A stretch of 64,000 nucleotides of DNA from NCBI RefSeq assembly GCF_049060185.1, contig NZ_JBMEQO010000002.1. One strand, written 5' to 3'. Positions 12,890 through 12,933 of the stretch are shown here, one piece after another. A program made the translations under genes and the position numbers. This DNA comes from Nannocystis pusilla. GTDB lineage: Bacteria > Myxococcota_A > Polyangia > Nannocystales > Nannocystaceae. A model generated the notes under the pieces. The model saw only the letters and a list, made by a program, of their open reading frames with translations. It was not told where the DNA came from and ran no database searches. The first letter of the stretch is position 1; each line of letters starts with the position of its first letter.

Positions 12890-12933
12890 ATGAATGGTGA
12901 TACATGTCCTCCTGGACATGTATCACCATTCAT
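12890..12933. terminator. perfect 20-bp-arm hairpin (atgaatggtgatacatgtcc-tcct-ggacatgtatcaccattcat) between convergent genes; contains GGACATGT core
   Basis: Inverted repeat verified base by base. It lies directly after the stop of the 12305..12889 gene and before the end of the convergent methyltransferase gene. No U-tract follows. Confidence 0.6.

Follow-up and report, generated by a model that had tools for sequence, protein, structure and literature searches.

A long perfect hairpin at positions 12890-12933 of a 64,000-nucleotide stretch of Nannocystis pusilla DNA (contig NZ_JBMEQO010000002.1; the window, meaning here the whole 64,000-nt stretch) lies between two convergent genes and raises the question of what this element is and why similar sequences recur at other gene ends nearby. 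The earlier note on this DNA had read them as self-complementary copies that pair with one another to form factor-independent terminators or attenuators. Our analysis of the window, together with a comparison sample of about 1.0 Mb of related (Nannocystis) DNA, showed that the hairpin is a member of a very abundant palindrome family, apparently confined to Nannocystis and close relatives, with its greatest density at gene ends. The explanation that best accounts for the observations overall is a palindrome family resembling repetitive extragenic palindromes (REPs) and bacterial interspersed mosaic elements (BIMEs), or resembling uptake sequences, whose copies would act as 3'-end stem-loops and would be accompanied by a sequence-specific protein or a molecular drive; we put its probability at roughly 0.45.

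The focal element has the following structure:

12890-12933, convergent spacer: perfect hairpin ATGAATGGTGATACATGTCC-TCCT-GGACATGTATCACCATTCAT, with 20-bp arms at 12890-12909 and 12914-12933 and the loop TCCT

This hairpin fills the spacer in which it lies, its 5' edge directly adjoining the TGA stop codon (12887-12889) of a plus strand gene for a Cys-rich protein and its 3' edge lying 40 nt from the stop codon (12974) of a minus strand methyltransferase gene (12974-13789), and both the sequence and the gene calls bear out its initial description as a perfect hairpin with 20-bp arms at a convergent junction. Its arm is the longest perfect arm across the approximately 1 Mb surveyed, and the computed RNA fold reaches -43.8 kcal/mol (z score -11) for the plus strand and -38.2 kcal/mol (z -9) for the minus strand. 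Orthologous junctions were located in five further genomes through the methyltransferase gene. In five lineages, the window included, a stem of 17-20 bp is kept between both stop codons, where the apical part ACATGTC[C/T]-N4-[G/A]GACATGT is invariant or altered on both sides and the basal 12 bp vary in sequence while their pairing persists through compensatory changes. Both-sided change was found in 8 of the 20 stem pairs, paired cells made up 89% of the alignment in comparison to 24-46% in slid controls, and the covariation score of 0.41 (0.15 ± 0.05 after shuffling) was reached by 0 of 500 shuffles. In the sixth genome (L126 2356-2452, Nannocystis JAIRAU010000027) the single long hairpin is replaced at the orthologous junction by a 6-unit array phased at 14 bp, indicating that the long hairpin and array forms interconvert.

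Sequence logos showed that the core unit of the family is the palindrome TGTCC-N4-GGACA, usually widened to ACATGTCC-N4-GGACATGT; beyond this the flanks carry just a weak outer GG/CC, and the conserved length is only about 20-24 bp. Degeneracy in the symmetric logo is R/Y-symmetric, and Y...R preferences extend into the spacer, the first base of which avoids A and the last base of which avoids T. Abutting cores at a strict 14-bp period create the GGACATGTCC units of arrays. Exact GGACATGTCC occurs 9 times in the window (0.05 expected) and GGACATGT 26 times (0.8 expected), counts that so far exceed chance that the motif observation is real, and motif copies are present at every site to which the earlier note had assigned them. 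Sites matching at least 9 of the 10 core positions, hereafter near-consensus sites, number 38 in the window in comparison to 1-3 for N3, N5 and N6 spacer controls. The 5-4-5 spacing is thus obligate, with N3, N5 and reversed-half controls at background. Phasing, which had not been noticed before, is equally strict: 40 window pairs of units (at least 7/10) are spaced exactly 14 bp apart where 0.74 are expected, with a further 18 pairs at 28 bp and 8 at 42 bp, and the 1.0 Mb (units at least 8/10) holds 320 pairs at 14 bp in comparison to 0-2 at each other distance from 11 to 17 bp. Arrays of 2, 3, 4, 5, 6, 7 and 8 units were counted 374, 95, 39, 26, 13, 4 and 1 times, respectively; within them the cores are conserved while the spacers drift, and some neighbouring units are identical. 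Perfect arms of at least 12 bp were found at 19 of the 49 sites in the 1 Mb whose arms reach 10 bp, which exceeds chance.

The family is taxonomically restricted. When one genome per species was scanned for GGACATGTCC-N4-GGACATGT, approximately 110 of 120 among the matches listed belonged to Nannocystis or to unclassified Nannocystaceae/Myxococcales assemblies, where they were scattered along the chromosomes; Nannocystis was represented by N. exedens, N. pusilla, N. punicea, N. bainbridge, N. radixulma, RBIL2 and several metagenome-assembled genomes. Site density was 0.6-0.86 per kb in every Nannocystis species with an identical consensus throughout, and no species-specific motif "dialects" were seen across these species. 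The window, which is 94-97.5% identical to N. pusilla genomes, has a density of 0.59 per kb; by extrapolation, a genome of about 12 Mb would hold about 7,000 near-consensus sites. Viral contigs gave eight single matches, which is chance level, the element had no match in Rfam at gathering thresholds, and our literature search found no description of the motif in Nannocystis, other myxobacteria or other bacteria. Literature matches concerned mainly p53, none of them bacterial; the identity of GGACATGTCC with the half-site consensus of vertebrate p53 response elements was treated as coincidence. Eight non-Nannocystis loci (L031, L036, L040, L064, L071, L095, L110 and L120) held 18 near-consensus sites in 57 kb, and since there is more than one site per locus, some of these loci (e.g. 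two Pseudomonas loci) may hold a local repeat with the same palindrome.

Position relative to genes was determined in the 1 Mb, the loci of which had been retrieved via the motif itself; this bias was handled by masking, in which all spacers holding the fetch pattern were removed before near-consensus sites were counted, and by a separate analysis of the window only. Convergent spacers had the highest density at 3.73 sites per kb, with a site in 49% of them (67% when masking was omitted), followed by co-directional spacers (1.49 per kb; 22% with a site), divergent spacers (0.45 per kb; 11%) and called coding sequence (0.34 per kb), in comparison to 0-0.03 per kb for the N5-spacer control. Within co-directional spacers the array starts a median of 26 nt past the upstream stop codon and ends 205 nt before the next start, with 76 arrays nearer the stop and 20 nearer the start, and arrays lie nearer stop codons than uniform placement within the tolerant part of the spacer predicts. 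Over the 1 Mb, motif position relative to stop codons, which the earlier note had suggested testing genome-wide, was non-uniform and biased to gene ends, and the terminator-like placement it had described at convergent junctions is broader than claimed. None of the nine divergent spacers of the window holds a near-consensus site, so that the gene-end bias is also stronger than had been stated. Over the 14 kb from 42000 to 56000 there are just two near-consensus sites (44752 and 51220), and gene-calling scores are lower there; the convergent junctions 43735|44233 and 49132|49179 have no near-consensus sites.

The further sites in the window are as follows:

2701-2812: array of direct repeats, not palindromes: 6-8 units of GGGCAGGTCC plus gaga or gaaa at a 14-bp period; co-directional spacer, abutting the stop (2800) of the minus strand open reading frame (ORF) 2800-3798
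16143-16180: array of three units, 34 nt 3' of the stop (16214) of a minus strand gene; -27.8 kcal/mol, z -5.2 (folded as 16135-16190)
22095-22132 and 22628-22637: copies inside the called TPR-protein ORF 21314-23371 (minus strand)
24211-24522: copies in the interdomain linker of the radical-SAM gene 23797-25620, translated as GHVPHDIS repeats
28675-28740: array of five units overlapping the stop (28690) of the plus strand ORF 28358-28690
34494-34586: exact TGTCC-N4-GGACA elements at 34494 and 34531 and a weaker one at 34563-34586; convergent spacer of 33383-34462 (plus strand) and a TetR gene, 34789-35463 (minus strand)
36289-36312, 36322-36345 and 36389-36412: three elements that fill the convergent spacer between a plus strand gene (stop 36270-36272) and a minus strand gene (stop 36414)
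40532-40555: element of two units, where the plus strand coding signal yields to a minus strand signal
41852-41875: element of two units whose arms are extended, 22 nt past the stop (41898) of the minus strand gene 41898-42851; -22.3 kcal/mol, z -4.4 (folded as 41840-41890)
56114-56137: element of two units in a co-directional spacer, 225 nt past a stop, with the next start 80 nt further on; no other copy in the window is promoter-proximal
57060-57125: array of five units in the convergent spacer of 56217-57049 (plus strand) and 57160-57945 (minus strand); the plus strand RNA of 57050-57135 forms two hairpins at -50.5 kcal/mol, z -7
60442-60465: element of two units, 6 nt past the stop of the plus strand ORF 59909-60436
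61820-61857, 61908-61931 and 61950-61968: cluster in the convergent spacer of 61456-61800 (plus strand) and 62042-62716 (minus strand)

Six convergent junctions with motif copies had been proposed, and five are supported, namely 12890, 34489-34590, 57060-57129, 61815-61965 and, through a frame switch in GC content at third codon positions (GC3) at about 40540-40560, the one at 40546; at 28690 the array does overlap a plus strand stop codon, but the downstream neighbour is ambiguous. The label of divergent or promoter regions given to three other sites has to be replaced, as each of them follows a stop codon by 2-22 nt: the junction at 36289-36412 is convergent, whereas 2697-2812 and 41852-41876 are 3'-proximal sites in co-directional spacers. 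At the 36.3-kb junction the position of the three elements is conserved in three species while their loops are variable and the remaining spacer has diverged, and N. bainbridge has an extra element immediately after a stop codon. The plus strand gene that ends there (about 36000-36272) carries -1 and -2 indels relative to close relatives.

Arrays that can fold do so at -22 to -50 kcal/mol (z -4 to -11), placing a stable hairpin shortly 3' of a stop codon. Canonical hairpins followed by a T-run occur at 14 places in the window where 13 are expected, none of them at an array, and no tetraloop preference was seen. Termination requires neither a constant 4-nt loop nor an invariant stem sequence, and the elements have both.

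Copies inside genes are likewise in excess. Strict gene interiors hold 68 exact TGTCC-N4-GGACA sites in comparison to 1-3 for N3, N5 and reversed-half controls, and 33 exact GGACATGTCC in comparison to 0.4 after codon shuffling, and the in-gene excess of the motif amounts to a factor of 13 to 30 or more. Reading frames that are open on both sides contain at least 24 strong arrays, and both in-gene arrays examined in detail proved to be extra in-frame sequence in a tolerant loop or linker. In a Lhr-type helicase the array occupies a variable loop; Nannocystis has a longer version of this loop than other bacteria, and N. bainbridge and N. pusilla have loops of unequal length. The radical-SAM linker of the window carries about 190 bp more motif repeats than that of the 95-97% identical N. 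pusilla CP185339. In this linker (24100-24450) the motif encodes three GHVPHDIS-like peptide repeats, and no frame has normal GC3, so the stretch behaves compositionally like non-coding DNA. Single 5-4-5 sites also occur inside genes, and these look evolved in place. Copy number turns over in spacers as well, the element at 34494/34531 being duplicated relative to N. pusilla Na p29. The latter genome (L012) has an extra segment of about 730 bp at 34746-34761 that is missing in the window; we take it, by eye, to be methyltransferase-like sequence followed by its own pair of TGTCC-N4-GGACA-like elements. Arrays probably grow and shrink through slippage of the 14-bp unit.

Taken as a REP/BIME-like or uptake-sequence-like family of 3'-end stem-loops, these elements would accumulate and persist immediately 3' of stop codons, where transcription would turn them into stem-loops of 8-20 bp with 4-nt loops, at convergent junctions in both directions. 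Such stem-loops would curb read-through, probably in concert with Rho or some other factor and not as U-tract terminators, and would shield the upstream mRNA from 3' exonucleases. The invariant apical core, the fixed 4-nt spacer, the 14-bp phasing and the in-gene excess together imply a second component, either a putative sequence-specific dimeric protein or a molecular drive, that would maintain or spread the motif; a transposase-like enzyme, an uptake or recombination machinery and a nucleoid protein are candidates. A tentative extension, which we consider doubtful, is a dedicated Nannocystis system that marks the ends of most transcription units, or else a signal for DNA uptake or recombination, which would be the first one known in Myxococcota. 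If the former, ACATGTCC-N4-GGACATGT would be read by a putative protein, whether folded as a hairpin in RNA or single-stranded DNA or present as phased sites in double-stranded DNA, and the protein would thereby halt or process transcripts or manage supercoiling where genes converge.

Several observations weigh against a role as 3'-end stem-loops. Of 452 near-consensus sites in the 1 Mb, 261 (about 58%) lie inside called coding sequence, where a terminator would be harmful. The array at 2701-2812 does not fold (z -0.5), and even unit numbers, expected if arrays were sets of hairpins, show no preference. Adjacent units are complementary at a mean of 7.4 of 10 positions, and the direct-repeat identity of neighbouring units is as elevated as their inverted complementarity. 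RNA-strand signatures are also lacking: the 15 nt downstream of the elements show no T enrichment (499 T downstream, 522 upstream), sense-strand mismatches comprise 246 G·U and 225 A·C (p = 0.36), which indicates no RNA-strand optimization, and folding energies of the sense and antisense strands are alike (-16.69 and -16.74 kcal/mol; p = 0.71). Template-switch "quasi-palindrome correction" can also generate compensatory changes in a DNA palindrome where no selection acts. The GTAG or CGTC tag that accompanies REP stems is absent beside the Nannocystis stem, and a phmmer search with E. coli RayT of six-frame ORFs from the 1 Mb found no RAYT homologue. With respect to the data, gene positions derive from a purpose-built GC3/codon-model caller rather than curated annotation, constructed because the window carries indels relative to its relatives, and part of the ORF ends are approximate. 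The analysis directly shows the anatomy and copy number of the family, its taxonomic restriction and gene-end bias, the covariation of the focal hairpin and the turnover of copy number, whereas transcription into hairpins, effects on termination or mRNA stability and the existence of a binding protein are inferred.

Other explanations account for parts of the same evidence. If nearby self-complementary copies paired to give classical factor-independent terminators or attenuators, as originally proposed, this would be consistent with sites directly past stops and at convergent junctions, with very stable hairpins and a focal stem that covaries across lineages, and with canonical terminators not being in excess elsewhere in the window. 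We nevertheless consider termination of this kind very unlikely. No U-tract follows any of the copies the earlier note had listed, as that note itself had recorded, and neither downstream T enrichment nor strand asymmetry is present; a conserved stem sequence and a fixed 4-nt loop would be unnecessary, hundreds of copies lie in genes, and the non-folding direct-repeat array at 2701-2812 demonstrates that the pairing of any two nearby copies is not general. Bacterial RNA polymerases, including the mycobacterial enzyme, terminate poorly at a hairpin alone. The classical intrinsic terminator was rejected because both the U-tract and a strand signature are missing. Alternatively, the unit could serve primarily, in double-stranded DNA, as the site bound by an abundant dimeric protein (nucleoid-associated, boundary or topology-managing), possibly with a PadR-like winged helix; binding at phased 14-bp sites would be cooperative, and hairpin potential would be a by-product. 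The strict 4-bp spacing and 14-bp phase, which even the direct-repeat arrays keep, the symmetric logo with cores conserved while array spacers drift, the in-gene excess without any RNA-strand signature and the match of ATGT-N8-ACAT to the PadR-family operator pattern, an inverted ATGT/ACAT motif with an 8-10 nt spacer (PMC3506622), all argue for it. Arms that extend beyond the motif and compensatory changes would be unnecessary for such binding, however, the copy-variable in-frame sequence of the two in-gene arrays would be an unusual origin for binding sites, and the candidate protein was not found, with no PadR gene among the approximately 50 window ORFs. We know of no bacterial DNA-binding protein that marks gene 3' ends by a specific motif, and overall this reading appears unlikely.

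An uptake or recombination signal like the neisserial DNA uptake sequence (DUS) or the Pasteurellaceae uptake signal sequence (USS), spread by a molecular drive such as preferential uptake or recombination, persisting wherever tolerated and with gene-end copies doubling as hairpins, would explain a strand-symmetric motif of one taxon that occurs at about 0.6-0.9 per kb with one consensus in all species, in genes as well as in spacers, where the two in-gene cases checked lie in variable loops or linkers and the spacer copies are inverted pairs at gene ends. We are not aware of any report of uptake specificity or of an uptake sequence in a myxobacterium. The DUS distribution is alike in that inverted pairs serve as terminators, the majority are intergenic and copies sit in permissive regions (PMC2397512), but known uptake sequences are asymmetric and single with no fixed spacing, in comparison to the 5-4-5 palindrome in phased tandem arrays seen here, and we regard this possibility as quite unlikely. 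Selfish or mutational DNA with no host function, generated by slippage and quasi-palindrome correction and surviving in 3' spacers and protein loops, was given as little credence as the classical terminator. Identical neighbouring units that point to recent duplication, copy numbers that differ between 94-97% identical genomes, the lineage with a 6-unit array where others have a single hairpin, the two in-frame insertions in coding loops or linkers and a density ranking that fits the expected tolerance to insertion would all be accommodated. Neutral accumulation would not lead us to expect cores conserved while spacers diverge in old arrays, sites that keep their position across species despite diverged surroundings, or elements that lie closer to stops than if they were spread uniformly over the tolerant spacer part; in-gene single 5-4-5 sites that look evolved in place would in addition require a directional force.

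Nannocystis genomes, at 11-13 Mb, are among the largest bacterial genomes, and one palindrome is found in roughly half to two thirds of their convergent junctions. If the elements define transcript 3' ends, they would provide a ready rule for annotating operon ends and could serve as portable insulators or terminators when natural-product pathways of myxobacteria are engineered. Should a specific protein or an uptake machinery recognize them, this would constitute a new motif-and-protein system with no described bacterial counterpart. The turnover of copy number, including in-frame growth in genes, offers a strain-typing marker and a source of protein-length variation.

The window otherwise presents an ordinary chromosomal context, with a MoxR AAA+ ATPase (bpMoxR domain), HEAT-repeat and neighbouring genes at 4609-12037 and a Prok-RING_4 (prokaryotic RING-finger) match among the scanned ORFs. 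The 4.85 kb at 16027-20878, with weak coding signal at 17.8-19.7 kb, form a variable islet without a counterpart in N. pusilla CP185339; there the conserved flanks enclose about 1.0 kb of AT-rich DNA in which no similarity to the islet was detected. A 1-bp deletion at about 24050 shifts the frame of the radical-SAM gene relative to close relatives, and an amidohydrolase is split into three ORFs at 60501-61800; these apparent frameshifts of the window, like the indels in the gene that ends at 36272, are either assembly indels or pseudogenes. Exact records for two window proteins were absent from the assembly collection, probably because of the apparent frameshifts.

Comparison with known systems places the family between several of them. 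The transposon footprint (a 10-bp palindrome with 4-bp target duplication) was rejected by inspection, as flanking tetranucleotides usually differ, and neither a transposase nor a RAYT was found among the approximately 50 window ORFs scanned; the only multi-copy gene families adjoining motifs were kinase and two-component expansions, identified from one checked member. Rickettsia palindromic elements share the presence of in-frame palindromes in tolerant protein regions, as in the Lhr loop and the radical-SAM linker. They are 100-150 bp long, in comparison to a Nannocystis unit of 14 bp that reaches no such full-length consensus and is densest at gene ends. Tandem operator arrays such as the MetJ met-boxes and omega heptads similarly consist of short palindromic boxes set head to tail in a fixed phase, but those are promoter operators of few genes, whereas the Nannocystis sites avoid divergent spacers and cluster past stops. 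A PadR operator is compatible in sequence, ATGT-CC-N4-GG-ACAT being the inverted motif ATGT-N8-ACAT, and was rejected on the gene-end location, the extrapolated approximately 7,000 copies per genome and the empty divergent spacers of the window; the pattern may serve as a lead to the type of protein and is not evidence of regulation. Intrinsic terminators resemble the elements in the stable stem-loop directly past a stop, most clearly at the focal junction where a covarying hairpin fills the spacer, and differ in that the Nannocystis elements have neither U-tract nor A-tract, conserve their stem sequence and lack strand-specific optimization.

The closest parallels are uptake sequences and REPs. 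With DUS and USS the family shares a short taxon-specific motif at about 1 per kb, in genes and spacers and on both strands, and with DUS the inverted pairs just past genes and the permissive location of in-gene copies; its obligate palindromic unit, set in phase, distinguishes it from typical uptake sequences. REPs lie 3' of coding regions, between convergent and unidirectional ORFs and sometimes within ORFs, and may supply stop codons (PMC3733652). The Nannocystis elements are likewise 20-40-nt, taxon-specific, high-copy imperfect palindromes, single or clustered, that prefer positions downstream of genes, often touch or supply the stop codon, occasionally enter ORFs and vary in copy number between strains. 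They differ in their stem arms, each of which is a palindrome in its own right, in a constant loop of 4 nt, in units that tile at 14 bp up to eight times, in showing no excess of G·T pairs and in not being extragenic, with more than half of the near-consensus cores located within called coding sequence. The missing tag, the RAYT search of the 1 Mb that found no homologue and the lack of extragenic confinement set the family apart from the tagged REP families. Its distribution nonetheless matches that of REPs and of neisserial uptake sequences, and REP325, a partly Rho-dependent terminator and mRNA stabilizer (bioRxiv 10.64898/2026.03.23.713779), provides a precedent, which together make a role as 3'-end stem-loops the most likely one for the Nannocystis palindromes.

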